Origin: Candidatus Undinarchaeota archaeon
Lineage (GTDB): Archaea; Undinarchaeota; Undinarchaeia; Undinarchaeales; UBA543
Direction of reading: 5' to 3'
DNA length: 64,000 nt
Assembly: GCA_964567575.1 (NCBI GenBank)
Contig: CAZMMZ010000002.1
Span: 14,254 to 78,253, forward strand
A program made the position numbers and the translations under genes. The notes under the pieces were generated by a model that worked only from the letters and a program-made list of their open reading frames with translations, did not search any database and had not been told where the DNA came from. Below, piece by piece: positions 7,141 to 48,478 of this stretch (position 1 is the stretch's first letter; every line of letters begins with the position of its first letter).

Positions 7141-7512
7141 TTATTTCCTCTTTTTCTTTACGCTGTTTTCCATTAAATAAGTTTCAATTTCTTGAACTTT
7201 CGGCATTAATGTTGCAAGAGTATCATTATCTGGTTTTGATTTGTATACCTTCCAATCATCAAGCAAAACATAAAGATGCGCATTTGTTCCAACACCAGTC
7301 ATCACAACTGCAAACCCGTTCTGCCTAATGCTTTTGTAAGCATTAATTGGAACTTTCGTTAAAGGATCGCCTTCAATATTAGACCATAAAAATCCAAGAG
7401 TCTCCTCTGAAACCTTTTCAAAATAATTTTTGTAAGGACTTTCCTCTATGATACTCTCAAATTTTTTTGTTTTCATAAAATCAGATTTTCCTAACTGGGT
7501 ATTTTGCTGCAC
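7141..7512 (-). CDS. Hypothetical protein
   Basis: 123 aa. The likely start is the internal MKTKKFES. No recognisable motif. Confidence 0.3.
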   Translation of the reverse strand: MQQNTQLGKSDFMKTKKFESIIEESPYKNYFEKVSEETLGFLWSNIEGDPLTKVPINAYKSIRQNGFAVVMTGVGTNAHLYVLLDDWKVYKSKPDNDTLATLMPKVQEIETYLMENSVKKKRK

Positions 7513-7903
7513 AAGCTTTGCATTTTATCCAAGGAACACCTTCAACCATTCTAATTTCTGTATCTGGTTTCTTACATTCCTTGCAAATTACAAACTCATT
7601 AACATAATTTTCTAGTTTCTGGTTTAAGAAAGCATTATTCTTTACAGTTTTGATTCTAAGACGATGGTTTTCAACTTCTCCTCTTGTCCCAGTTTCAAGA
7701 GCCAAGTATTTTTGCAAGTGAGCAGGTTCTCTTTCAAGTGTGCGAGCAACATCTGCAAAATTTTTAATAAGTGTGTTGTTCCCTTCAACAAAAGACTGAA
7801 ATTTAGGAATCTCAAATCTCTCTATTTCTTGTTCTTCAGTTTGTTTAGGAAGGCCTTCTCTTGCCCTGTTCAACATTTTTTGATATTCATCTTCTGTTGT
7901 CAT
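7481..7903 (-). CDS. eif2b: Translation initiation factor 2 beta subunit (aIF2 beta)
   Basis: 140 aa. It has the LQKYLALETGTRGEV... segment and a C-terminal zinc ribbon CKECKKPDT...CKAC. Confidence 0.85.
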   Translation of the reverse strand: MTTEDEYQKMLNRAREGLPKQTEEQEIERFEIPKFQSFVEGNNTLIKNFADVARTLEREPAHLQKYLALETGTRGEVENHRLRIKTVKNNAFLNQKLENYVNEFVICKECKKPDTEIRMVEGVPWIKCKACAAKYPVRKI

Positions 7904-12215: not shown

Positions 12216-13469
12216 TTACGTTCCAGCACTGTAATCAGTAGCGTACTTCTTCTGCTCTTCACTCAAAACATCAAGTCCCAATCCCATTGTGTTAAGTTTC
12301 AAATCAGCAATTTCCTGATCCTGCTCTTTTGCAATATCATAAACTCTGTTCTCCAGGTCCTTGCCTTTTTCTGCAATGTGGATCATTGTTTTGAATTGGT
12401 TAGCAAAGCTCATATCCATAACTTCACTAGGATGGCCTTCAGCTGCTGCCAGATTAACTAATCTTCCTTTAGCAAGCACATAAATTCGTCTTCCATCCGG
12501 CATCTTGTACTCTTCATTGTTTGGACGAATCTCCCGTTTGCTTTCAGAAAGTTCTTCCAATTCCGGAATCTTGATTTCGCAGTCGTAGTGACCAGTGTTG
12601 CAAACAATTGCTCCGTCTCGCATTGTTTCAAAATGTCTTTTAACAATAATATCTTTCATACCAGTTGCAGTAATGAAAATATCTCCAATTTTTGCAGCTT
12701 CATCCATTTTCATAACTCTGAAACCTTCAAGAGTTGCTTTCAAAGCCTGTATTGGATCAACTTCAGTAACAATAACATTTGCACCAAGTCCTTTTGCGCG
12801 CATTGCACATCCTTTTCCGCAGTGACCGTAACCAGCAACTACAAAATTCTTTCCAGCAATTAGTACAGAAGTTGCTCGAATAATACCGTCAATAGAACTC
12901 TGACCAGTTCCGTAAACATTATCAAAATCCCATTTTGTTTCAGCATCATTTACAGCAATAACTGGGTAGAGCATTTTTCCGTCATCAGCCATTGCTCTCA
13001 ATCTGTGAACGCCAGTTGTGGTTTCCTCAGAACCACCGAGAATTTCTTTAGCTAGTTCTGGGTGTTTGTTATGAACTGTGAAAATAAGATCAGCACCATC
13101 ATCAAGAGTGATTGTTGGTTTTGCAGCAATGCACTGTTCAATACTCCAATAAAATCCTTCAGTGTCTTGGCCGTACCATGCGAAAACATCAACATTTTCC
13201 TCTTCAGCAAGAGCTGCAGCAACATCATCCTGAGTGCTTAGTGGATTACAACCACTCCACACAATTTTAGCGCCAGCATCACGTAAGGTTTTTACAAGAA
13301 CAGCAGTCTCTTTAGTAACGTGGAGACAGCCAGCAATTGTTTGACCGGCTAGCGGTTTGGTCTCAGAATACTTTTTTCTGAGAGCCATCATGACAGGCAT
13401 TCTTGATTCTGCCCAGTCAATTTTTAATCTTCCTTGTTCTGCAAGTTTTGGGTCTGCTACTTTTGACAT
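12216..13469 (-). CDS. ahcY: S-adenosyl-L-homocysteine hydrolase
   Basis: 417 aa with an NAD-binding GYGHCGKGCA segment and an overall AhcY layout. Confidence 0.9.
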   Translation of the reverse strand: MSKVADPKLAEQGRLKIDWAESRMPVMMALRKKYSETKPLAGQTIAGCLHVTKETAVLVKTLRDAGAKIVWSGCNPLSTQDDVAAALAEEENVDVFAWYGQDTEGFYWSIEQCIAAKPTITLDDGADLIFTVHNKHPELAKEILGGSEETTTGVHRLRAMADDGKMLYPVIAVNDAETKWDFDNVYGTGQSSIDGIIRATSVLIAGKNFVVAGYGHCGKGCAMRAKGLGANVIVTEVDPIQALKATLEGFRVMKMDEAAKIGDIFITATGMKDIIVKRHFETMRDGAIVCNTGHYDCEIKIPELEELSESKREIRPNNEEYKMPDGRRIYVLAKGRLVNLAAAEGHPSEVMDMSFANQFKTMIHIAEKGKDLENRVYDIAKEQDQEIADLKLNTMGLGLDVLSEEQKKYATDYSAGT

Positions 13470-28211: not shown

Positions 28212-28832
28212 TTGTCATCTCTTTTTCAAAGAGAATTTAGCTACTTGTGTACTTCTATTTCTTCTCTCTTTTGCGCTGTTTTTTTCCTTTACGTGAGCGT
28301 GGTTTGGGCGTTCCCCCTCCTACAAACCACGTCTCATTCTTTTCCAGTTATAGATTCTCAAGAATCCACTGCAAATGAGGATTTCATTGTAGTTTTCGTA
28401 GATTTTCAAAATAAAAAATCATCAACTGAATTTGCGGATATTCAAAAAATTTTCTCAAGTCAAGAGCCAGGATTTCCCAGCGTCTATAATTATTATAAGG
28501 AATCATCTGAAGGAAAATTCCTTCCCAGATTCCATTTCATTGATGGATGGTACACATCTGAACAAGATATGGAATATTATGGCAATGACGCAAAGAAATC
28601 CAAATCCAATTGCGGAACAGAAACAATAGATTCTGCAAACACTTGCACAGCTGAACTTGTAAAAGAAATTCTTGAACTTCTCTCAATTGTTTGGCTTGCA
28701 AAAATAGTTGCAATTGGTGTATTCGCGTATTTTTTCATTAAACATTTTAAGCTGTTTATGATAGCTGGCGCAGTTATGCTAATAACTTTCCTATTTTTCT
28801 CAGTTCTTTCAGTTGCATTACCAATGTTCTGA
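28212..28832 (+). CDS. Hypothetical membrane protein (N-terminal TM, two C-terminal TM helices)
   Basis: 206 aa. The 5' end of the ORF covers a 9-bp inverted repeat CGTGGTTTG/CAAACCACG at 28299-28333, so the start is uncertain. Confidence 0.3.
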   Translation: MSSLFQREFSYLCTSISSLFCAVFFLYVSVVWAFPLLQTTSHSFPVIDSQESTANEDFIVVFVDFQNKKSSTEFADIQKIFSSQEPGFPSVYNYYKESSEGKFLPRFHFIDGWYTSEQDMEYYGNDAKKSKSNCGTETIDSANTCTAELVKEILELLSIVWLAKIVAIGVFAYFFIKHFKLFMIAGAVMLITFLFFSVLSVALPMF

Positions 28833-28977
28833 GATAAAAAATGCGAGTAGGTTCTTTCTATGTTTTGCATAGTTTGCCATTCTCCTCCTCTCCTGCTCGC
28901 ACTCATTTTTACTACTGGATAAACTCATTCGAGTTAAAAAAACTTTAAAACCCTTCAGCGAGAGCACTATTTTTGTA

Positions 28978-29223
28978 ATGGAAAACAATGCGTTTCTCTT
29001 CGCGAGAATCAATATAAAAAATGAGCAGGAGGTTCTTGAAAAAGTGCAGAAGATAAATGGCGTAGATTACGCCGTTCTCCTCTTTGGTAAGGAAGACCTG
29101 CTCGCCAAACTTTCTGCAAAAAATGTAGATGTTATTTACAAAGAAACTTTGTCAAAGCTCAGAGAAATTCCTGGGCTTGAAGCAACAAAGATATTTCTTT
29201 GCAAAGGAGTAGAAGATGAATAA
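28978..29223 (+). CDS. Stand-alone Lrp/AsnC C-terminal (RAM) domain protein; first gene of the 28978-31800 operon
   Basis: 81 aa. NAFLFARINIK...VDYAVLLFGKEDLLAKL...IPGLEATKIFL fits the RAM beta-alpha-beta-beta-alpha-beta pattern. Confidence 0.5.
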   Translation: MENNAFLFARINIKNEQEVLEKVQKINGVDYAVLLFGKEDLLAKLSAKNVDVIYKETLSKLREIPGLEATKIFLCKGVEDE

Positions 29224-29536
29224 AAAAATTGTAATTGCAATTGTGTTTGCTTGTGTTTTTTTGCTTGTCCAAATCGGAAGTGTTCATGCAATTAAAAAAG
29301 ATCAAAAAGAAGCAGTTGAAGGAATAGAGGATACTATTGGAAATGTAGTAGATCTTATTCAATTAATTGCAGGTTCTATTGGTGCTCTTGTTTTAACAGC
29401 CGGTGGAATTATGTTCATGGTTTCTGGAGAGAGTCCGGAAAAGAAAGATCAAGCAAAACAAATCCTAACAATGGGTGTTATTGGAATGGTGATTATTTTC
29501 GCTGGGCCCTGGATTGCACAATTTATTGTAAGTTAA
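29216..29536 (+). CDS. Small secreted protein with a Sec signal peptide and two hydrophobic helices (VirB2/TrbC/CedA1-like pilin topology)
   Basis: The signal peptide is MNKKIVIAIVFACVFLLVQIGSVHA. The mature protein is about 81 aa, with hydrophobic segments IQLIAGSIGALVLTAGGIMFMV and ILTMGVIGMVIIFAGPWIAQFIV separated by a charged loop. It overlaps the upstream gene by 8 nt. Confidence 0.4.
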   Translation: MNKKIVIAIVFACVFLLVQIGSVHAIKKDQKEAVEGIEDTIGNVVDLIQLIAGSIGALVLTAGGIMFMVSGESPEKKDQAKQILTMGVIGMVIIFAGPWIAQFIVS

Positions 29537-29537
29537 A

Positions 29538-30221
29538 ATGAAGTTGAAAAAGTTTGTAGTAATAGTATTAGCTTTAGTGCTTCTGCAATTACCAATTGTA
29601 TATAGTGCAGAAACAGTTGCAATGCCAGTTGTTTCTGTTGGTGGTGGAGGTGGTGGTTGCAATTGTCCTGATGCAGAAGAAATTGCAGATAAGGTAGTTG
29701 TAAAACTTGAAGAAAAAGATGAAACAAAAAGTCAGGGAAAAGAAAAAATTAAAATTTCTGGAAAAGAGGAAGCGGATTCTGCAACAGAAATAGATAACCT
29801 TGTAAAAAAGGTAGAAACAAAAATATTCAATATTTCTGAATTCACAGGAGATGCGCGTGAGATTATTGCACTCACGCGAGATAAAATGGATACTCCCTTG
29901 GCTGAAGTATACACTAGCGGAGGATTGAGTGTTGCAATGAAACTTCTCAGTCTTATTGGAATAGATACAGATGTGTTAGCGATTAGAGATGTTCCCAAAA
30001 TAATATCTTGTGGTGCGGTTGCAACAGGAGGATTATGGAACTATTTCGCAGAATTACATAATTGCATTTCTAATGTAATTAATACTAAGCTTGAGAAATT
30101 AGAGCCTCAAACTATTGAAGAAAAGAAAAGAGAAATTGCAATAGAATCCGCATTTGAAACATCAAAAATAATTTCAACTGAGCTTGTATCAACTAAAGCA
30201 TCAGAGGCATTTGGGTGGTGA
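29538..30221 (+). CDS. Secreted protein (Sec signal peptide, poly-Gly plus CxC near the N-terminus); unknown
   Basis: The signal peptide is MKLKKFVVIVLALVLLQLPIVYSA. It is followed by GGGGGGCNCP. The protein is 227 aa. Confidence 0.4.
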   Translation: MKLKKFVVIVLALVLLQLPIVYSAETVAMPVVSVGGGGGGCNCPDAEEIADKVVVKLEEKDETKSQGKEKIKISGKEEADSATEIDNLVKKVETKIFNISEFTGDAREIIALTRDKMDTPLAEVYTSGGLSVAMKLLSLIGIDTDVLAIRDVPKIISCGAVATGGLWNYFAELHNCISNVINTKLEKLEPQTIEEKKREIAIESAFETSKIISTELVSTKASEAFGW

Positions 30222-30934
30222 TGATGAACAACACAATACTCGAGTTTTATAAAATGTCACTTTCGCTTGTTTTTATGTTCTTAACTCCAATGTTACTAAT
30301 TTTCGGGATTAGATTGCTGTTATCAAAATGGGGAACACCTGAAAAAAGAACACAGATAAAGGAAACAGTTTCTGGCTTCATTTCATTTCTCATAGCAACA
30401 CCAATTGGAATTTTGATGTATGGATTTCTAATAAAAATTTCTGAAAGCATTTCATTATATTTTGTTGGAGAAAATTTTTCAGTTAATGGGTTAACAAATT
30501 TTTCAAATGCGTTTGCAAAAGTTTTGCAAAGTAAAACAATGATAGCAATTTATAATAAAGCTTCTATTTTTTCAACAATAACCATTTCAATGCAGCGCAT
30601 ATTACTTGTTTTGGGTGCTTTACTGATTCCAGTAACTTTTGCTCTAATTTTTCTTTCAACTTCAAATCAAATTAAAAACTTTGGACAGAGTATGATGATG
30701 TTTTTTGGATTAGTTATTTTTCTTCCAGTTCTTGATTCATTAATTTTTCAATGTGCTGAAATTGCAATCACTCTAAGTACAAGTGCAGAATATATTGTAA
30801 TTGGATCCTATTGGTTAGTTGGTTTCATGAATGTCTTTTTGCTTATCGCAGCTTTCCTAATTTCAAAATCAGGAGCAAATACAATAGTGCAAACAGTTGT
30901 TCAAAAAGTTAAGGAGGTTCGAATTAAAAAATAA
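30215..30934 (+). CDS. Polytopic membrane protein (about 6 TM; VirB6/CedA-like by topology only)
   Basis: 239 aa with repeated long hydrophobic helices. It overlaps the upstream gene by 7 nt. Confidence 0.35.
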   Translation: MVMMNNTILEFYKMSLSLVFMFLTPMLLIFGIRLLLSKWGTPEKRTQIKETVSGFISFLIATPIGILMYGFLIKISESISLYFVGENFSVNGLTNFSNAFAKVLQSKTMIAIYNKASIFSTITISMQRILLVLGALLIPVTFALIFLSTSNQIKNFGQSMMMFFGLVIFLPVLDSLIFQCAEIAITLSTSAEYIVIGSYWLVGFMNVFLLIAAFLISKSGANTIVQTVVQKVKEVRIKK

Positions 30935-31800
30935 TGGCTTATGAAATTCCACAATCCTTGAAATATGAAGAGAAAATAATTTTTGGATTAACAACTCGTC
31001 AATTAGCATATCTCAGCATTTCCTGTTTACCAATTGCAATACTTTTCAAAACAGGACTTCCGTTTGCATTGAAAATTATTTTTTCAGTAATGTGTGTTTC
31101 TATTGGTGGTAGCTTTGCATTTTTGAAACTCGATAAAAAGTTTTTTGAAATCTTTCAATTTTACAAGTCAAATAATCAGCTTGGATTTTTTGATAAAAAA
31201 ATCTCAGAGATAATTGGTGTTAAAAAAGTTGAATGCGATTTGATAATTCTAAATGATAATAGTATTGTTGGGATTTTGCAAGTCATACCAATTAATTTTG
31301 AAACAAAAGCTGAAACTGATCAAAAAGCTATAATAAAAAATTATCAGGAATTTTTGAATTCACTTGATTTTCCAATTCAATTACTTGTGAAAACAGTTAA
31401 TGTAGATATTGATGATTATCTTAAACACCTTCGTACCGAAATTCAAAGAAAAATCAATAGCAAGCGAAGTAAGATGCAAAAGCTGTTTGAGAGCTATGTA
31501 GAGTTTATTGAGGATTACTTGAAAAATAATTCAGTAAAAAACAAATTGTTTTATGTTATTATTCGTGGTGGGCGAATTTCTCGAAATAAAACTGAAAATG
31601 AAAAAATTCTTACAGAAATTGAAAATCGTTTATTAGTTTGCAAAGAAGGTTTATCAAAATGCGGATTGAAAACAAATCGAATAAAAAGCGAAGCACTTGT
31701 TCCATTAATGTTAAGCTTTTTTGGATTTTCAGTAAATATTAAACAAAACTATTCTTCACCATTAACTTTCTCTAGTAACAATAAAACCCACAATCTTTAG
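30934..31800 (+). CDS. Membrane protein with an N-terminal 2-TM VirB3-like segment and a VirB4/TrbE/CagE N-terminal-domain-like region; no P-loop ATPase domain present
   Basis: FGLTTRQLAYLSISCLPIAILF plus a second TM helix, then ECDLIILNDNSIVGILQVIPINFETKAETDQKAIIKNYQEFLNSL resembling the VirB4 N-domain pattern. The ORF ends at 31800, overlapping the convergent idsA. Confidence 0.35.
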   Translation: MAYEIPQSLKYEEKIIFGLTTRQLAYLSISCLPIAILFKTGLPFALKIIFSVMCVSIGGSFAFLKLDKKFFEIFQFYKSNNQLGFFDKKISEIIGVKKVECDLIILNDNSIVGILQVIPINFETKAETDQKAIIKNYQEFLNSLDFPIQLLVKTVNVDIDDYLKHLRTEIQRKINSKRSKMQKLFESYVEFIEDYLKNNSVKNKLFYVIIRGGRISRNKTENEKILTEIENRLLVCKEGLSKCGLKTNRIKSEALVPLMLSFFGFSVNIKQNYSSPLTFSSNNKTHNL

Positions 31801-32730
31801 AATTTCGTTTTTGGCTTCTGAGTCTGGAAGTATATCTAATTCTTTTTTTGATTCTTCTATTAATCTTGTAGCTTCTGTTTTTGCAAATTCAATTGATCCG
31901 GTTTTATCTAAAAGTTGAATTGCATTGTTTATCATTTCCTCTGTTGTTTCTTCTACAGATGTTTCTAAAATTTTCACAAGTTCTGCTTTATCAGTTTCTT
32001 CTAAATGTTGCAGTGCATGGCAAACAATACTTGTCTTTTTCCCTTTCTTTATGTCAGAGCCGCGAGTCTTTCCGGTTTTGTTTGATGCAAAGTCAATATA
32101 ATCATCCCAAATCTGATATGCTAATCCTAGTTTTATTCCTGCAGAATAAATCTTTTCTTGAGTTTGTTTATCTGCATTAGCTATCATTGCTCCTAGTTTC
32201 AAAGATGTTGCAATATGCACTCCAGTTTTTAGTATTGACATTTGATTATAATCTTCAATTGTTAGCGAATCTTTTTTCTCAAATAATACATCCCACGCTT
32301 GCCCTTCACACATATTTATAATTCCATTTGAAAAAACTTTAAAAACTTCTTGGTAATTTTCTCCAGTATATCTTAAAAGTGCTTCTATACTCTTTGCAAA
32401 AATTCCATCTCCAACATCTATTGCAAGTGCTTCACCTTGAGTTTTCCATAACGTTGGTTTGCCTCTTCGTAATTCATCTTGATCCATTATATCGTCGTGT
32501 ACTAAACTCATTGCTTGTATAAGTTCAACTGCTGCTGCTACTGGAACTGCGGTTTCTACATTTCCTCCTAGTGCTTCGCACACAAGTAAACAAAAAATAG
32601 GACGTATTCTTTTTCCTCCTGTTAAAACTTGTTCATTCATTGAATTGTAAAACTCAGAAGGATCTTTTTTTGGTAGAAGTTTTTCTAGTTCAATATCTAC
32701 AAGTTGTTTGCATTGTTCTGTTGTTGTCAT
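31762..32730 (-). CDS. idsA: Polyprenyl (geranylgeranyl) diphosphate synthase
   Basis: 322 aa with an FARM (LVHDDIMDQDELRRGKPT) and a SARM (IWDDYIDF). Confidence 0.85.
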   Translation of the reverse strand: MTTTEQCKQLVDIELEKLLPKKDPSEFYNSMNEQVLTGGKRIRPIFCLLVCEALGGNVETAVPVAAAVELIQAMSLVHDDIMDQDELRRGKPTLWKTQGEALAIDVGDGIFAKSIEALLRYTGENYQEVFKVFSNGIINMCEGQAWDVLFEKKDSLTIEDYNQMSILKTGVHIATSLKLGAMIANADKQTQEKIYSAGIKLGLAYQIWDDYIDFASNKTGKTRGSDIKKGKKTSIVCHALQHLEETDKAELVKILETSVEETTEEMINNAIQLLDKTGSIEFAKTEATRLIEESKKELDILPDSEAKNEILKIVGFIVTRES

Positions 32731-32766: not shown

Positions 32767-34563
32767 CTAATCAACAGTCAAAGTCTTGCTTAAGTTTCTT
32801 GGAAAATCAGGATTCAAATCAAGATTCTTGCTTGCATAATAAGAAACCAATTGCGCTGAAACAGTTGCTAAAATAGGAAATATTGTTTGTGAGGTTTTTG
32901 GAATTTTTACATAGCTTTCTGCATACTTCTGCAGAACATCATTATCTTCTGCAATCAGTAATACTTTCCCGTGCCTGCATGCAACTTCATTAATGTGGCT
33001 AATCATCATGTCAACATTATCTGGTGCAGTAATGAATGCAACTGGATAATCTTTCTCAACTGCACTAAGTGGGCCGTGTTTGAATTCCGAACTGAAAATT
33101 CCTTCGCAGTGCATGTATGTGATTTCCTTGAGTTTGAGTGCACCTTCTTTTGCAATTGGGTGTGTGATTCCATACCCAAGATAATAAAGTTCTTTCCAAC
33201 CTTTGATATGCCCTGCTAATTCTTTGCATTGCTCATCTGTTTCATCAATTGTTTTTTGAATAAGGTCAGGAAGTTCTGAAAGCCCTGCAGTGTCTTTTCC
33301 ACCTTCGCGCATTGCAAGATAAAGGAACATTATTGCTTGATTCAAAAAAGTTTTTGTTGCAGGAACTGAAATTTCATATCCACATGCAATTGGTAAATAA
33401 ACATCTGCGATGTTCATTAAAGTTGATCCAAGAACATTCATCATTCCTAAAACTTTGCATCCTTTTTCCTTTGCAAATTTCAAAGCATCTAGGACATCTT
33501 TTGTTTCTCCGCTCTGACTTACAAAAACAATTACATCTTCAGGTGTTAATGTGTTTCCGTATTCTTCAGTGAATTGCTGAGGCAATGATGGGATAGCACG
33601 ACGCTTTGCGATTTTATTAAAATAATATGATCCTAAAATACAAGCGTGATGACTTGTTCCACATCCAACAAAATAAAGTTCTCTTGCATTTTTTATTTCT
33701 TCAACAAATGGTTCAACAAATTTTGAATCATTAAGTAAATCAATTAAATCCCGAGCTGCATTTGGTTGCTCGTGGATTTCTTTTAACATAAAATGTTCAT
33801 ATCCTCCTTTCTGCGCAGATTCCATACTTTCTGTATGCTCAACAGTTTCTCGCTCAACTTTTGATCCATCCTCTACTCTGTAAAATTCTGCTTTTCCTGG
33901 TTCAATAACTGCAATGTCTCCATCTTCCATATGGATTATTTTATTTGTAAGTGGTAATATTGATGGAACATCTGAAGAGCAGTATGATTCTTTTTCAGTA
34001 ACTGCAACAACAAGTCCGGATCCTTTCTTAATTGCATAAAGTTTGTTCTCAGTTTTGTTCAAAAAAATAAGTGCATAATCTCCTTTGAATTCTTTGTAAG
34101 CAAGTTGTATGCTTTTCAGCATATCATTTCCTTGTCTCATATATTTTGCAACAACATGCACACAAACTTCCCCGTCATTTGTACTTTCAATTGTGTGTCC
34201 TTCTTTTTCAAGAAGTTCTTGTAATTGTATTGTATTTACAACGTTTCCATTCTCTGCACCAACAATTTCTTTTTTGCAATCCATAAATGGTTGCGCATTT
34301 ACTTGTGCAGGAGCTCCAAAAGTAGCCCATCGCAATTGAATTATGCCTCGCTTGCCTGTTAATTCAGAAAGATTTAGCTTATCATCAACTTCTTCAACTT
34401 TTCCAATATCTTTTCTAAGATCAATAGTTTCTCCAGAAATTGTAGCAGCCCCAACTGAATCATAACCTCGATAAGAAAGTCTTTTTCCTCCCTCAACAAG
34501 CATTGAGCCAAGTTGCTTCTCTTCTTCTGAAACTATTCCAAATATGCCACACATATTATTCAA
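32767..34563 (-). CDS. glmS: Glutamine--fructose-6-phosphate aminotransferase
   Basis: 598 aa. The N-terminal MCGIFGIV marks the Ntn amidotransferase domain. Two SIS domains and a ...TLTVD-like C-terminus follow. Confidence 0.9.
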   Translation of the reverse strand: MNNMCGIFGIVSEEEKQLGSMLVEGGKRLSYRGYDSVGAATISGETIDLRKDIGKVEEVDDKLNLSELTGKRGIIQLRWATFGAPAQVNAQPFMDCKKEIVGAENGNVVNTIQLQELLEKEGHTIESTNDGEVCVHVVAKYMRQGNDMLKSIQLAYKEFKGDYALIFLNKTENKLYAIKKGSGLVVAVTEKESYCSSDVPSILPLTNKIIHMEDGDIAVIEPGKAEFYRVEDGSKVERETVEHTESMESAQKGGYEHFMLKEIHEQPNAARDLIDLLNDSKFVEPFVEEIKNARELYFVGCGTSHHACILGSYYFNKIAKRRAIPSLPQQFTEEYGNTLTPEDVIVFVSQSGETKDVLDALKFAKEKGCKVLGMMNVLGSTLMNIADVYLPIACGYEISVPATKTFLNQAIMFLYLAMREGGKDTAGLSELPDLIQKTIDETDEQCKELAGHIKGWKELYYLGYGITHPIAKEGALKLKEITYMHCEGIFSSEFKHGPLSAVEKDYPVAFITAPDNVDMMISHINEVACRHGKVLLIAEDNDVLQKYAESYVKIPKTSQTIFPILATVSAQLVSYYASKNLDLNPDFPRNLSKTLTVD

Positions 34564-46420: not shown

Positions 46421-47034
46421 TATTTATTTTTGAACAGAATTGCTGCTACGTCCCCCCTTATTTTTTCAGAATCTCTTTCCATGATTCTCTCAATACTATT
46501 ATCAATTTTCAAATTTCCATCTGCACTTTCAATTATAACTCCGCCTGCAATTTCTACTGTTTTCCCAAGTTTTGATTTAAGTTCTTGTGCTAATTCTTTT
46601 CCATACGCTTCATTTTCTTGATTAAAACATAGTTTGCTGTTTTCTCCTATTGCATCTATACCTTCTTTTGCTAGAATTTTTAGCGCGGTTTTATATCTGC
46701 CTGTTCCTTGTTTTGCCATTCTATCCAATTGTGTTTCAGCTTTTTCAATTGCTGAAGTTATTGTATTGTCTCTGCTTCTGAGGTGAATGTTGTGTGCTTC
46801 AAGATTTGTTGAAGAAAGTATTCTTTGCTGTTCTCGGTCTGCATTCTTTTTTCCAGTTTCTTTTATTACAGATTTTTCAGCATTGATTTTTTCTTTTTCA
46901 GTTTTTCTAAGCTCAGTTGTTTTCTCTTTTGCATCGCTAATAATTTTATTAGCTTCTGTTATTGCTTCTTTCATTATTTTCTGATTAATTTTTGTTATTC
47001 CTTCCATTTTATTCACCTCAACCGAATAGGCCAA
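46420..47034 (-). CDS. atpE: A-type ATP synthase subunit E
   Basis: 204 aa, with coiled coils and a globular C-terminus, in the expected position. Confidence 0.75.
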   Translation of the reverse strand: MAYSVEVNKMEGITKINQKIMKEAITEANKIISDAKEKTTELRKTEKEKINAEKSVIKETGKKNADREQQRILSSTNLEAHNIHLRSRDNTITSAIEKAETQLDRMAKQGTGRYKTALKILAKEGIDAIGENSKLCFNQENEAYGKELAQELKSKLGKTVEIAGGVIIESADGNLKIDNSIERIMERDSEKIRGDVAAILFKNK

Positions 47035-48478
47035 CTCCTAACATGATTAATATTGCTATAAGCAAACCAAAGATAGCATATGTTTCTGGAATAACTGAAA
47101 GCACAAGGCCTTTTCCAGTTGCTTCTTTGTTTTTCACTGTTGCTCCAATTGCTCCACCAGCAACTATTCCTTGTCCAATAGCTGATAATCCAGCAAATCC
47201 TACTGCACATCCTGCTGCTATTGATGCTAATCCTGCTACGCTTGTTAGTGATCCTGCTTTTCCAGCTCCAACAAGACCTACTGCTGCAAGTACGAGAATT
47301 GCGACAATGAATCCGTAAAGTGCTTGTGTTTCTGGGAGTACAGAGAAAACCATACTCTTACCAAACACTTCAGGCTTTTCAGAAACTGCTCCAACACCTG
47401 CTGCTGCTGCGATTCCTTGTCCAATAGCTGATAGTCCTGCTACTCCGACTGCGATACCTGCACCAACACCTGCTAGTCCAATTGTTTCTGTTATTCCTTG
47501 ACCACCACCTGATCCAAGTATTCCTGCACCAAGTAATATTAAAATAGCAATAAGCATTCCGTAAATTGCTTGTGTTTCTGGTAGTACTGAGAAAACCATT
47601 CCTTTTCCCATCATCTTATCGTCTTCAGCAACTGTACTAACTGCAGCTCCAGCTGCAATTCCTTGTCCAATAGCTGATAATCCTGCTACACCAACTGCAA
47701 GACCTGCTCCAACAGCTGCTATTCCTGCACCCATTTTTAATGATCCTACAATTGTTCCTCCAATCATTCCTGTTGAAACAAGAATTAGGATTGCGACAAT
47801 GAATCCGTAAAGTGCCTGTGTTTCTGGAAGTACTGAGAAAACCATTCCTTTTCCAAACATGTCTTCTTTTTCAGAAACTGCTCCAATAGCTGAACTTGCT
47901 GCGATTCCCTGTCCAAGACCTGAAAGTCCTGCTACACCAACTGCGATTCCAGCACCAAGTGCTGCGAGTCCAATTGGTAATGGGAGTTTTGCAGATGTTG
48001 TTCCAATAATTCCTGCACCAAGTAAAATTAAAACAGAAATAAGCATTCCATAAATTGCTTGTGTTTCTGGTAATACTGAGAAAACCATTCCTTTTCCCAT
48101 CATCTTATCATTTTCAGCAACTGCGCCGATTGCAGATCCAGAAGTTATTCCTTGTCCAATAGCTGAAAGTCCTGCGAAACCAACAGCAATACCTGCTCCA
48201 AGACATGCAATTGCAGTACCGATTGAAATATCGGCTGTGGCAGTTCCTACAATTCCTGTGCCCATTAAAATAAGTATAGCAATAAGGAAGCCGTAAATTC
48301 CCTGAGTTTGTGGAAGCGCTTGGAAAATAAGTGCTGTTGAGAATTTTTCTGGATCTTCTGTAATAGCTCCAGCTCCAGCAGCTCCTGCGATACCTGCTCC
48401 AATTCCACTAGCTAGTCCTGCTACTCCGACTGCAATTCCAGCTCCTATTGCAGCAATTGCAATTTCTGCAGTTGCCAT
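47018..48478 (-). CDS. atpK: A-type ATP synthase proteolipid (K/c subunit) with six fused hairpins (about 12 TM)
   Basis: 486 aa made of six ~81-aa repeats, each GAGIAVG...GQGIAA...hairpin. The helix-2 ion-site motif is PQTQ in repeat 1, PETQ in repeats 2-5 and PETY in repeat 6. Confidence 0.85.
   Translation of the reverse strand: MATAEIAIAAIGAGIAVGVAGLASGIGAGIAGAAGAGAITEDPEKFSTALIFQALPQTQGIYGFLIAILILMGTGIVGTATADISIGTAIACLGAGIAVGFAGLSAIGQGITSGSAIGAVAENDKMMGKGMVFSVLPETQAIYGMLISVLILLGAGIIGTTSAKLPLPIGLAALGAGIAVGVAGLSGLGQGIAASSAIGAVSEKEDMFGKGMVFSVLPETQALYGFIVAILILVSTGMIGGTIVGSLKMGAGIAAVGAGLAVGVAGLSAIGQGIAAGAAVSTVAEDDKMMGKGMVFSVLPETQAIYGMLIAILILLGAGILGSGGGQGITETIGLAGVGAGIAVGVAGLSAIGQGIAAAAGVGAVSEKPEVFGKSMVFSVLPETQALYGFIVAILVLAAVGLVGAGKAGSLTSVAGLASIAAGCAVGFAGLSAIGQGIVAGGAIGATVKNKEATGKGLVLSVIPETYAIFGLLIAILIMLGVGLFG
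47018..48478. repeat. Intragenic tandem repeat of six ~243-bp units within atpK; copies 486 bp apart are near-identical
   Basis: The anchor gtttctgg recurs near 47089, 47332, 47575, 47822 and 48062. The 47575 and 48062 blocks match over about 50 nt with 2-3 mismatches. Confidence 0.8.

Follow-up and report, generated by a model that had tools for sequence, protein, structure and literature searches.

Five overlapping genes in a marine Undinarchaeota genome resemble part of a type IV secretion system (T4SS) without its ATPase, which raises the question whether they are debris of a mobile element, a device that works without VirB4, or one half of an apparatus whose other half has been lost or lies elsewhere. 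The genes are located on the + strand of the 64-kb stretch of DNA analysed here (the window), where the ORF listing confirmed a tightly packed, overlapping set at 28978-31800. The features of the locus are as follows.

28944..28950, + strand: candidate archaeal TATA element, TTTAAAA, read by eye ~30 nt upstream of the RAM start codon
28978-29223, + strand: RAM-domain gene, 81 aa
29216-29536, + strand: VirB2/TrbC-type pilin gene, 106 aa
29538-30221, + strand: p227 gene for a secreted protein, 227 aa
30215-30934, + strand: polytopic membrane protein gene, 239 aa with a GTG start
30934-31800, + strand: VirB3 (PrgI) + VirB4-N gene for a putative anchor, 288 aa
31762..31800, no strand: deletion/rearrangement junction placed by alignment with the relative L007; the VirB4 ATPase gene starts here in relatives
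31762-32730, minus strand: idsA, convergent with the 288-aa gene

The coordinates from the ORF list agree with the original prediction of five same-strand genes that overlap or abut. The junction sizes given there were 8, 2, 7 and 1 nt; the 8-nt overlap of the RAM and pilin genes, the 7-nt overlap of the p227 and 239-aa genes and the 1-nt overlap of the 239-aa and 288-aa genes stand, but the pilin and p227 genes are separated by a 1-nt spacer. Public gene calls assign ATG starts to the 30215-30934 gene, which give 237-238 aa and an overlap of 1-4 nt with the p227 gene. The 288-aa gene overlaps idsA by 39 nt. The TTTAAAA box is a candidate promoter element of the operon. Topologies were derived from a Kyte-Doolittle scan, and those originally predicted, including a 6-TM protein and a secreted protein with a poly-Gly/CxC N-terminus, agree with it. 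The domain assignments of the original prediction, namely a stand-alone RAM protein, a pilin of the VirB2/TrbC/CedA1 topology encoded at 29216, and a 288-aa protein with a VirB3-like 2-TM N-terminus followed by a VirB4/TrbE N-domain pattern, are likewise borne out by the profile matches described below.

The 106-aa product matches Pfam T4SS_pilin (PF18895; E 1.4e-12, 47.9 bits against a curated cutoff of 26.6), TrbC (PF04956; E 9.7e-9, 35.8 bits against 27.9) and the NCBIfam Mbov_0395 pilin-like model (E 3e-4). A signal-like segment at residues 1-27, with likely cleavage after VHA as judged by eye, is followed by hydrophobic helices at 41-71 and 82-106 that are joined by a charged loop. With a signal peptide, two TM helices and profile matches, the product has the features of a VirB2/TrbC-type pilin, and orthologues occur in the relatives L007, L008, L019 and L009. 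No PDB chain was matched by sequence at E below 0.4.

Residues 5-64 of the 288-aa protein match Pfam PrgI/VirB3 (PF12666; E 2.1e-7, 31.8 bits against a cutoff of 27), and two hydrophobic helices within residues 24-66 correspond to the 2-TM arrangement of VirB3/PrgI. The protein further matches positions 3-280 of the 894 in NF045975 (VirB4_plasma; E 2e-11), as well as NF041427 (TrsD/TraD; E 8.7e-11) and TIGR00929 (E 0.0025); these VirB4 matches cover part of each model and stay under the whole-protein cutoffs, as a single domain would. A precomputed PF26593 (TraC-like) assignment is also present, and the VirB4 N-terminal (TrsD/TraC-like) domain spans residues ~96-270. A sequence-profile search of the PDB gave no match. 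BLASTP aligns the protein with residues 1-214 of a fused 946-aa DPANN VirB4, P0065 (E 6e-30), and the ATPase of L007 aligns with residues 225-787 of the same protein, complementing the first match. These alignments show VirB4 to be naturally split in this clade, into a predicted membrane-anchored N-domain protein and a separate motor. Among ~50 DPANN homologues the complete ones have ~280-330 aa, and by this comparison the 288-aa protein is full length for its family, a predicted fusion of VirB3 (PrgI) to VirB4-N that probably acts as membrane anchor or adaptor for the VirB4 ATPase. The original prediction had the protein stopping before any ATPase domain; there is indeed no ATPase at this point, but the protein is not truncated, as the stand-alone form is conserved in the clade. 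Since complete homologues have this length and are followed by a separate ATPase gene, the part lacking here is a complete gene module rather than the end of a gene.

The 239-aa protein contains 5-6 hydrophobic segments and is 36-51% identical to orthologues at the equivalent position in L007, L008 and L019. A precomputed Pfam PF19590 (TrbL_3) assignment is attached to three independent gene calls of the identical gene, and hmmscan against Pfam gave no match and did not reproduce it; the orthologues give weak hmmscan matches to T4SS_pilin (0.002) and TraG_N (0.0015). Topology and gene position are consistent with VirB6/TrbL, which makes the protein a candidate VirB6/TrbL-like channel or platform.

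p227 has a single N-terminal hydrophobic segment followed by GGGGGGCNC. A signal peptide and a Gly run with CxC precede a charged helical linker, and the C-terminal region is conserved and contains two invariant cysteines, C158 and C176. It matches nothing in Pfam, NCBIfam or PADLOC, has 6 relatives among 1.84 billion representative proteins, and is conserved at the equivalent position in L007, L008 and L019. The AF2 model is unusable (pLDDT 39.5). This fast-evolving, lineage-specific protein is possibly a minor pilus or tip subunit.

Residues 16-74 of the 81-aa protein match Pfam AsnC_trans_reg (PF01037; E 1.1e-6, 28.8 bits against a cutoff of 25) with no accompanying HTH match, as in a stand-alone RAM protein consisting of the Lrp/AsnC ligand-binding domain only. 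It is presumably a small-molecule sensor or the partner of a regulator. The L007 orthologue is 61% identical and occupies the equivalent position. The RAM gene heads the operon, as the suggestion of a RAM-controlled surface structure would have it; nevertheless, it comes first only in the window genome and its closest relative, so that RAM control is a local rather than a defining feature.

Complete clusters in relatives consist, in order, of genes for a small protein, a VirB2-like pilin, a secreted protein of ~230-280 aa, a VirB6/TrbL-like polytopic protein, the VirB3 + VirB4-N fusion, a separate VirB4 ATPase and often a partner of 96-109 aa; in other DPANN, VirB4 is a single protein of 880-1020 aa. 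In L007, L008, L009, L019, L016 and L030 the orthologous anchor gene is followed immediately by the ATPase gene (570-750 aa), which overlaps its 3' end, usually start codon on stop codon. The T4SS-like reading of the original prediction is therefore upheld, as the 29216 and 30934 products match T4SS profiles and the orthologous operons of relatives are T4SS-like with a VirB4-type ATPase.

In the window genome, the ATPase and the conserved 96-aa partner (p96) are absent from the locus, and idsA abuts the anchor gene directly. Homology with L007 runs up to ...YSSPL, whose Leu codon complements the idsA stop codon, and the 288-aa ORF ends with ~10 codons that read antisense through the 3' end of idsA. 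Between the corresponding points L007 carries a 586-aa ATPase, a 109-aa partner, a Doc-like gene and a 71-aa gene, so that ~2.6 kb is absent here relative to this syntenic locus. The only Walker A ORFs in the 64-kb window are FtsY, SRP54 and the A-ATPase A subunit, and tblastn with the VirB4-type ATPases of three relatives found nothing in the 64 kb (best E 1.2); both searches agree with the claim that the operon lacks an ATPase. Neither a VirB4-family ATPase, the universal signature of T4SS, nor any remnant of it or of p96 is present in the window or the 9.7 kb beyond. The arrangement is not an assembly artefact, since 10 independent metagenome contigs from different samples are 99.9-100% identical across it, with an identical anchor-idsA junction.

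A decaying remnant of an integrated conjugative element or plasmid, one of the options originally proposed, might look like this: T4SS parts without ATPase, relaxase or coupling protein resemble debris, the region has the lowest GC of the window, and the corresponding region of L007 contains a Doc/Fic toxin-antitoxin-like pair. The chromosomal context largely refutes this idea, which we regard as hardly credible. L007 carries the full cluster at a site that is syntenic on both sides (S19e, L31e, prefoldin and FtsY upstream; idsA, GlmS, a TrmB-like gene and TatD downstream), and the relative that shares this core position, between FtsY and idsA-GlmS, is only 53-61% identical in protein. As predicted, no relaxase, coupling protein (T4CP) or integrase was found among the window ORFs of at least 150 aa, all of which are housekeeping genes or without a match. 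The sole tRNA of the window lies 7 kb from the cluster rather than flanking it. Compared with flanking genes, the third-position GC (GC3) of the five genes is native, at 0.20-0.22 against 0.21 for ftsY. Homologous chromosomal clusters with no relaxase or integrase nearby also occur in MAGs labelled Diapherotrites, Nanoarchaeota, Woesearchaeota, Micrarchaeota and Pacearchaeota. Given the core-chromosome site and the lack of integrase, relaxase and coupling protein, the operon is most probably not the remnant of such an element.

We consider it somewhat probable that the operon encodes the membrane and pilus half of a T4SS-like apparatus of VirB type (monoderm MPF-FATA-like), chromosomal and widespread in DPANN, and that here this half has recently been orphaned while staying intact. 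The sequence data establish the component identities, with the VirB6/TrbL-like protein as a candidate, the natural split of VirB4, the lack of an ATPase at this site and the chromosomal setting; the mechanism, the ligand control and the present functional state are inferred. None of the five ORFs is disrupted, the translational coupling between them persists, the anchor retains 34 of the 35 positions conserved in its family, as do its ATPase-linked relatives, and Tajima relative-rate tests against L007 show no consistent acceleration; therefore, either the loss happened very recently or the genes remain in use. The TrbL-like and anchor genes form the lowest-GC kilobases of the window, and compared with the L007 orthologues their amino-acid composition has moved towards AT-rich codons, to a greater extent than in flanking genes, which possibly reflects relaxation. 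On the steps established for VirB systems, we infer that the Sec-exported pilin would be held in the membrane, that a VirB4 hexamer would dock on the VirB3/VirB4-N anchor and the VirB6 platform, and that the docked VirB4 would extract the pilin and polymerise a pilus or conduit serving contact between cells and the transfer of macromolecules with a host or partner. Expression may be tied by the RAM protein to a small ligand, for instance an amino acid. The ATPase and partner module would have been excised from the locus, leaving idsA tail-to-tail with the anchor gene, and no pilus would be assembled unless an unlinked VirB4-type ATPase exists.

Such an ATPase is the essence of another explanation, in which the module is fully functional and the system is split into two loci, with VirB4 and the 96-aa partner encoded elsewhere and acting in trans. 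We take this to be a serious possibility that falls short of probable. The intact ORFs, the retained residues and the unaccelerated rates fit it equally, the deletion spared both the anchor ORF and idsA, and the junction has become fixed in a streamlined population that was sampled globally. Related Undinarchaeota with partial or dispersed sets offer precedents: another species (L024) has a stand-alone ATPase and p96 locus beside RAM and Lrp genes, and a UBA543-type genome has a p227 homologue on a 75.8-kb scaffold with an anchor-ATPase pair more than 10 kb away. The ATPase and p96, the very unit absent here, move as a block elsewhere. Against this, the protein database holds no orthologous ATPase attributable to the window population, whose genome is itself covered by 64 kb plus ~10 kb, though other cluster proteins appear on 5-13 contigs from 4-5 sources; in a database of 5.8 billion clusters, all ATPases at least 58% identical to that of L007 belong to other lineages. 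VirB4 relatives in the 45-48% identity class are very numerous, and a divergent paralogue in the genome is possible. The sole orphan candidate, the L024 locus, differs in GC3, at 0.293 as against the window's 0.217 (p 9e-6); the same-genome control shows no such difference. Wherever a relative yielded both genes on one locus, the ATPase also adjoins the anchor, and its start, usually overlapping the anchor stop, suggests that coupled synthesis matters. The five genes could also constitute a VirB4-independent, RAM-regulated pilus, adhesion device or channel, as the ORFs persist without an ATPase, translation of the RAM and pilin genes is coupled, and p227 evolves fast and is restricted to the lineage, which is frequent among surface proteins. 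We find this very improbable. VirB4 is established as the only component common to every known T4SS, needed both to extract pilin and to assemble the pilus (see also PMC12102498). A VirB4-N anchor has no known role when the ATPase is absent, and every related anchor-bearing locus, complete or partial, has one.

Among known systems, the chromosomal T4SS of Patescibacteria and archaeal Ced/Ted come closest to this apparatus. Patescibacteria (CPR) possess relaxase-free chromosomal T4SS with pilins that are essential for the epibiotic lifestyle, e.g., SEML1_0006-0019 of Southlakia epibionticum (survey, PMC12102498; Tn-seq, PMC10633639). Like the DPANN cluster, these comprise VirB4, a TrsD-like VirB4-N protein, PrgI/VirB3, VirB6 (a candidate in the DPANN cluster) and VirB2-like pilins, are usually without a linked coupling protein, and are monoderm MPF-FATA-like but with pilins; like DPANN, the organisms are ultrasmall, genome-reduced and host-dependent. 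The host here is archaeal, and the function in DPANN is a predicted one. The locus also differs in its lineage-specific secreted Cys protein, in the absence of the VirB4 ATPase, and in the fusion of PrgI to the TrsD-like domain in the 288-aa protein, whereas the survey reported no VirB3-VirB4 fusions (PMC12102498).

Ced (Sulfolobales) and Ted (Thermoproteales) are likewise domesticated, relaxase-free chromosomal T4SS derivatives of archaea, and the likeness is one of architecture: a pilin resembling VirB2, a polytopic protein resembling VirB6 and an ATPase resembling VirB4; TedC, like the window pilin, has a cleavable signal peptide (PMC9905601). Similarity between the VirB6 N-terminus and the pilin is common to both. 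Unlike in the DPANN cluster, neither a VirB3/PrgI nor a separate VirB4-N protein is recognised in Ced/Ted, whose components had to be identified by structures or profile-profile searches where the DPANN proteins match bacterial Pfam/NCBIfam T4SS models directly. Ced/Ted import DNA, a role that would be hypothetical for the DPANN cluster. The best profile matches are to Gram-positive conjugative T4SS (pCF10 PrgI/PrgJ/PrgH; pGO1/pSK41 TrsC/TrsD/TrsE; Mycoplasma ICE Mbov_0395/0397), namely to the PrgI, TrsD/TraD, Mbov_0397 VirB4 and Mbov_0395 pilin-like families, and pGO1 also encodes a VirB4-N-like domain (TrsD) as a separate gene. In contrast to these, the locus has an archaeal host, a VirB2-type pilin and no mobile element, relaxase, coupling protein, VirB1-like hydrolase or VirB8-like protein. 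In the SPEARE loci of Nanohaloarchaeota, also DPANN, VirB4-family ATPases are proposed to act in host interaction rather than conjugation; there giant Ig-repeat surface proteins carry a fused VirB4/TraG-like ATPase domain and no pilin, PrgI and TrbL set is described (PMC10266531), whereas the ATPase is precisely the part missing from the window cluster.

A compact VirB2/VirB6/VirB3-VirB4 apparatus is conserved across several DPANN groups and may bear on how these archaea attach to their hosts and exchange material with them. Lineages of pelagic Undinarchaeota disperse or dismantle the system in differing ways, and this series allows one to ask which parts are needed and supplies gene targets for cryo-ET and expression studies; as the window copy is incomplete, its own value is mainly comparative. 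More speculatively, and rather doubtful in our view, DPANN may own a domesticated relaxase-free T4SS that marine Undinarchaeota have broken into a trans-acting, RAM-headed pilus/channel module and an ATPase/p96 module beside RAM/Lrp, switched by amino-acid or metabolite sensing. If so, the window operon would be a working, ligand-controlled host-contact module and not debris, and would represent an archaeal counterpart of the T4SS essential for the epibiotic growth of Patescibacteria.

All five genes of the operon were recovered exactly at the positions of the original prediction, on a single strand.

Genes of the operon
28978-29223, + strand: RAM-domain protein, 81 aa (ORF call, Pfam RAM match)
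29216-29536, + strand: VirB2/TrbC-type pilin, 106 aa (ORF call, Pfam T4SS_pilin and TrbC matches)
29538-30221, + strand: secreted protein p227, 227 aa (ORF call, no family match)
30215-30934, + strand: polytopic TrbL-like protein, 239 aa (ORF call, precomputed TrbL_3 match)
30934-31800, + strand: anchor, a PrgI (VirB3)/VirB4-N fusion protein, 288 aa (ORF call, PrgI and VirB4-model matches)

Successive genes overlap by 8, 7 and 1 nt at the first, third and fourth junctions, as predicted; the second junction, given as 2 nt, is corrected to a 1-nt spacer. The anchor ORF and the convergent idsA gene share 39 nt. Hydropathy scans reproduced the predicted membrane topologies, with a signal-like segment and two helices in the pilin, one N-terminal hydrophobic segment followed by GGGGGGCNC in p227, five to six hydrophobic segments in the 239-aa protein, and two helices close to the N-terminus of the 288-aa protein. 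Across the region, including the idsA junction, ten independent metagenome contigs from JGI, ENA and Logan show 99.9-100% identity, which indicates that the arrangement is genuine and has become fixed in an essentially clonal population sampled widely. Its variation comprises one SNP and one 9-nt indel, both outside the operon. These only variants over ~30 kb of overlapping contigs are GlmS V573I (window position 32847, three contigs) and an in-frame deletion in idsA (32326-32334, one contig). A sigma-70 promoter and terminator scan of the operon was uninformative, the host being archaeal, and PADLOC returned nothing informative on the operon.

The 81-aa product scores above the Pfam cutoff for the Lrp/AsnC ligand-binding (RAM) domain, and the Pfam scan found no HTH domain in it, as expected of the stand-alone RAM protein proposed to head the operon. 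Immediately 5' of the operon lies a 206-aa ORF (28212-28832, + strand) with a signal-like N-terminus, a C-terminal TM pair and a partial M6 metalloprotease domain (TIGR03296 positions 1-83 of 286, E 7e-11), in which no HExxH motif is found. By eye, its C-terminal segment resembles a 130-aa ORF at the equivalent position (7161-7553) of L007, the syntenic locus of the closest relative; tblastn between the two gave no match at E 1e-3. This ORF may encode a truncated protease or a cluster-linked membrane protein.

The pilin scores above the Pfam cutoffs for T4SS_pilin (E 1.4e-12) and for TrbC/VirB2, which bears out the VirB2/TrbC likeness proposed for the 29216 product; PDB sequence searches with the pilin and with the anchor profile returned nothing informative. 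A precomputed Pfam TrbL_3 (VirB6-like) match is recorded for the 239-aa protein on three separate gene calls. It was not reproduced in our own Pfam profile search, and relatives of the protein give only weak Pfam matches to T4SS_pilin and TraG_N, so its membership of VirB6, judged from sequence, is probable, not proven. The TrbL-like protein profile also picks up the pilin (E 1.4e-4), and Pfam T4SS_pilin matches two TrbL-like relatives (E 0.002). This similarity echoes the homology between VirB2 and the N-terminus of VirB6 that has been reported for CedA and CedA1 (PMC9905601). p227 matches no family in Pfam, NCBIfam or PADLOC; a search of 1.84 billion representative proteins gave it just six relatives, and a word-indexed homologue search returned the query alone. 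Its C-terminal region is conserved, including two invariant cysteines, and an AF2 model built from 6 sequences was unusable (pLDDT 39.5).

The predicted VirB3-like N-terminus and VirB4/TrbE N-domain of the anchor are both borne out. Residues 5-64 pass the Pfam cutoff of PrgI (VirB3), and the protein aligns with the initial ~280 positions of VirB4 models (NF045975, E 2e-11) and with the stand-alone TrsD/TraD family (NF041427, E 8.7e-11). Plasmids of the pGO1 type encode TrsD, a protein resembling the VirB4 N-terminus (PMC12102498). Some 50 homologues of the anchor turned up, in MAGs labelled Diapherotrites, Nanoarchaeota, Woesearchaeota or plain archaeon, and several bear the NCBI name "PrgI family protein". 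The apparently complete ones measure ~280-330 aa, and the shorter ones come mostly from 0.5-2 kb contigs. The idea that the 288-aa protein is cut short before an ATPase domain is therefore contradicted, since its complete homologues have the same size and the ATPase is a separate gene. Against P0065, a fused DPANN VirB4 of 946 aa, the anchor aligns to residues 1-214 (E 6e-30) and the L007 ATPase to residues 225-787 (47% identity). These consecutive alignments show that VirB3-VirB4 is naturally split in this clade into a membrane-anchored N-domain protein and a motor protein.

The whole cluster is found at four loci of relatives (L007, L008, L009 and L019) in the order small protein, pilin, secreted protein, polytopic protein and PrgI/VirB4-N. 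At all four, a separate ATPase of 570-750 aa follows the anchor, its start overlapping the anchor stop codon; it matches DUF87, AAA_10 and P-loop_TraG. DPANN have a very large family of these ATPases, with forms of ~580 aa, ~750 aa and 880-1020 aa, the longest holding PrgI and TraC-like domains within one polypeptide. A conserved protein of 96-109 aa, without a Pfam family, adjoins the ATPase at L007, L016 and L024 and lies elsewhere in the cluster at L008, which it heads, and L019; it seems to be a part of the DPANN system that had gone unrecognised.

Positions of the 96-109 aa partner in the loci of relatives
L007, 12541-12870
L016, 8671-8961
L024, 7173-7463
L008, 7899-8207
L019, 15579-15872

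Pelagic relatives keep differing subsets of the cluster genes. Loci of the UBA543 and L030 types hold only anchor and ATPase, with the 96-aa partner in the UBA543 type, and these sets stand beside idsA or elsewhere; the MAG UBA543 has the syntenic idsA-GlmS neighbourhood and, with a related locus in an Undinarchaeota MAG, places the present organism among the marine Undinarchaeota (DPANN). The protein MDP7282016.1, from the lineage of the latter MAG, bears the label Undinarchaeales. Upstream of the T4SS-like cluster at L008 (1640-6920, GCA_043814055.1) are six tandem TrmB-family regulator paralogues of 284-315 aa.

L007 (anchor 53% and idsA 61% identical) is syntenic with the window on both sides, through S19e, L31e, prefoldin, FtsY, the cluster, idsA, GlmS, a TrmB-like gene and TatD. 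Between anchor and idsA it carries a 586-aa ATPase, the 109-aa partner, a Fic/Doc-like gene and a 71-aa gene, all absent from the window, a difference of ~2.6 kb. The Fic/Doc-family gene (E 4.7e-5) and its 71-aa partner (12889-13447) form a toxin-antitoxin-like pair between the ATPase module and idsA, within the missing segment. Anchor homology to L007 extends to ...YSSPL, where the Leu codon is complementary to the stop codon of idsA; the final ~10 anchor codons are idsA antisense. Neither tblastn with three relatives' ATPases nor profile HMMs of the 96-aa partner gave a match in the window or the 9.7 kb past its right end. ORFs with Walker A motifs in the window are limited to FtsY, SRP54 and the A-ATPase A subunit, in keeping with the predicted lack of an ATPase in the operon. 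We are highly confident, jointly, that the operon constitutes the pilus-and-channel half of a chromosomal, VirB-type T4SS-like system of DPANN whose VirB4 is naturally split, and that the motor module was excised from this locus.

The window is core chromosome throughout, including Topo VI-B, RIO kinases, eIF1A, MCM, TBP, SAH hydrolase, SRP54, ribosomal proteins, FtsY, idsA, GlmS, GatD/E, the A-type ATP synthase operon, NifS/U and sugar-nucleotide enzymes. As predicted, no integrase, relaxase or coupling protein was found in its 64 kb. The proposed comparison with flanking genes gave the operon a third-codon-position GC (GC3) of 0.20-0.22, the same as that of ftsY. Native GC3 together with the L007 synteny rules out a recently integrated conjugative element, and the suggestion that the operon is a remnant of one is not supported. 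The A-type ATP synthase c (proteolipid) subunit in this window (47018-48478, - strand) has 486 aa and six ATP-synt_C matches, hence a multi-hairpin fused c subunit; the L019 version has 404 aa.

A related population (L020, L022, L024; Undinarchaeota MAG contig CAZWSR010000013.1) has a stand-alone locus of ATPase and 96-aa partner (L024 4163-7576), bordered by a RAM protein of 83 aa, a double-HTH Lrp/AsnC regulator of 317 aa, an intron-containing tRNA (113 nt, Rfam 49.8 bits) and IleRS; these flanks suggest a module relocated at a tRNA and associated with RAM and Lrp regulators. Three points favoured it as the missing module: its ATPase lies at a plausible phylogenetic distance, 72-73% identical to those of L007 and L016, it shares no gene with the window, and the tetranucleotide correlation is 0.98. 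Against it, GC3 is 0.293 in its 12 genes versus 0.217 in the window's 56 (Mann-Whitney p 9e-6), and the same-genome control, the window's own extension L026, does not differ from the window (p 0.27). L024 thus belongs to another species and is rejected as the relocated ATPase of this genome; it is kept as a precedent. Every database ATPase at least 58% identical to that of L007 comes from another lineage.

ATPases at least 58% identical to that of L007
L007 itself
P0056, P0057: UBA543 type
P0058, P0181: L024 type
L008
L019
P0061/P0180: shares a 46,789-bp longest contig with anchor cluster P0006/P0183, the two probably lying together
P0062: L008/P0061 type by sequence motifs, assigned by eye

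The window's own cluster proteins were recovered from 5-13 contigs belonging to four or five sources. Such frequent sampling, with all close ATPases foreign, points to a genuine loss of the cognate ATPase, in an analysis that covered ~74 kb of this genome; a more divergent paralogue may be encoded elsewhere in it. A chimeric anchor-ATPase query of species-representative genomes did not return the contig of the window.

Our preferred reading, held with modest conviction, is that the five genes are a recently orphaned remnant. That the remaining genes work with an unlinked ATPase is a tentative alternative of appreciable but lower probability, for which the L024-type locus is the precedent. Dispersal without loss would also occur if the UBA543-type p227 homologue shares a scaffold with its anchor and ATPase: its longest contig, at 75,837 bp, has the length of the scaffold that bears them, and the 21.7 kb analysed did not contain the homologue. 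All five ORFs are intact with translational coupling kept, and of 35 positions that 26 relatives conserve at 90% or more, the anchor retains 34, as do its ATPase-linked relatives. Relative-rate tests against L007 show no consistent acceleration and differ between outgroups (L008 or L019), so no conclusion on acceleration is drawn. Within the window, GC per kilobase reaches its minimum in the TrbL and anchor genes (0.279-0.295; mean 0.349, sd 0.027). At codon positions 1 and 2, GC in these two genes is lower by 0.06-0.07 than in their L007 orthologues, against an average difference of ~0.01 for flanking housekeeping genes; together these may be a faint sign of relaxation.

The individual families are already recognised by Pfam, NCBI and JGI annotations. 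In the literature searched, the cluster in DPANN or Undinarchaeota is not described beyond passing mentions. By analogy with VirB biology and the Patescibacteria and Ced/Ted precedents (PMC10633639, PMC12102498, PMC9905601), the pilin would be exported via Sec, a VirB6 platform would sit in the membrane, and the VirB3/VirB4-N anchor would dock a VirB4 hexamer that extracts and polymerises the pilin. The resulting conduit would serve contact or transfer with the host.
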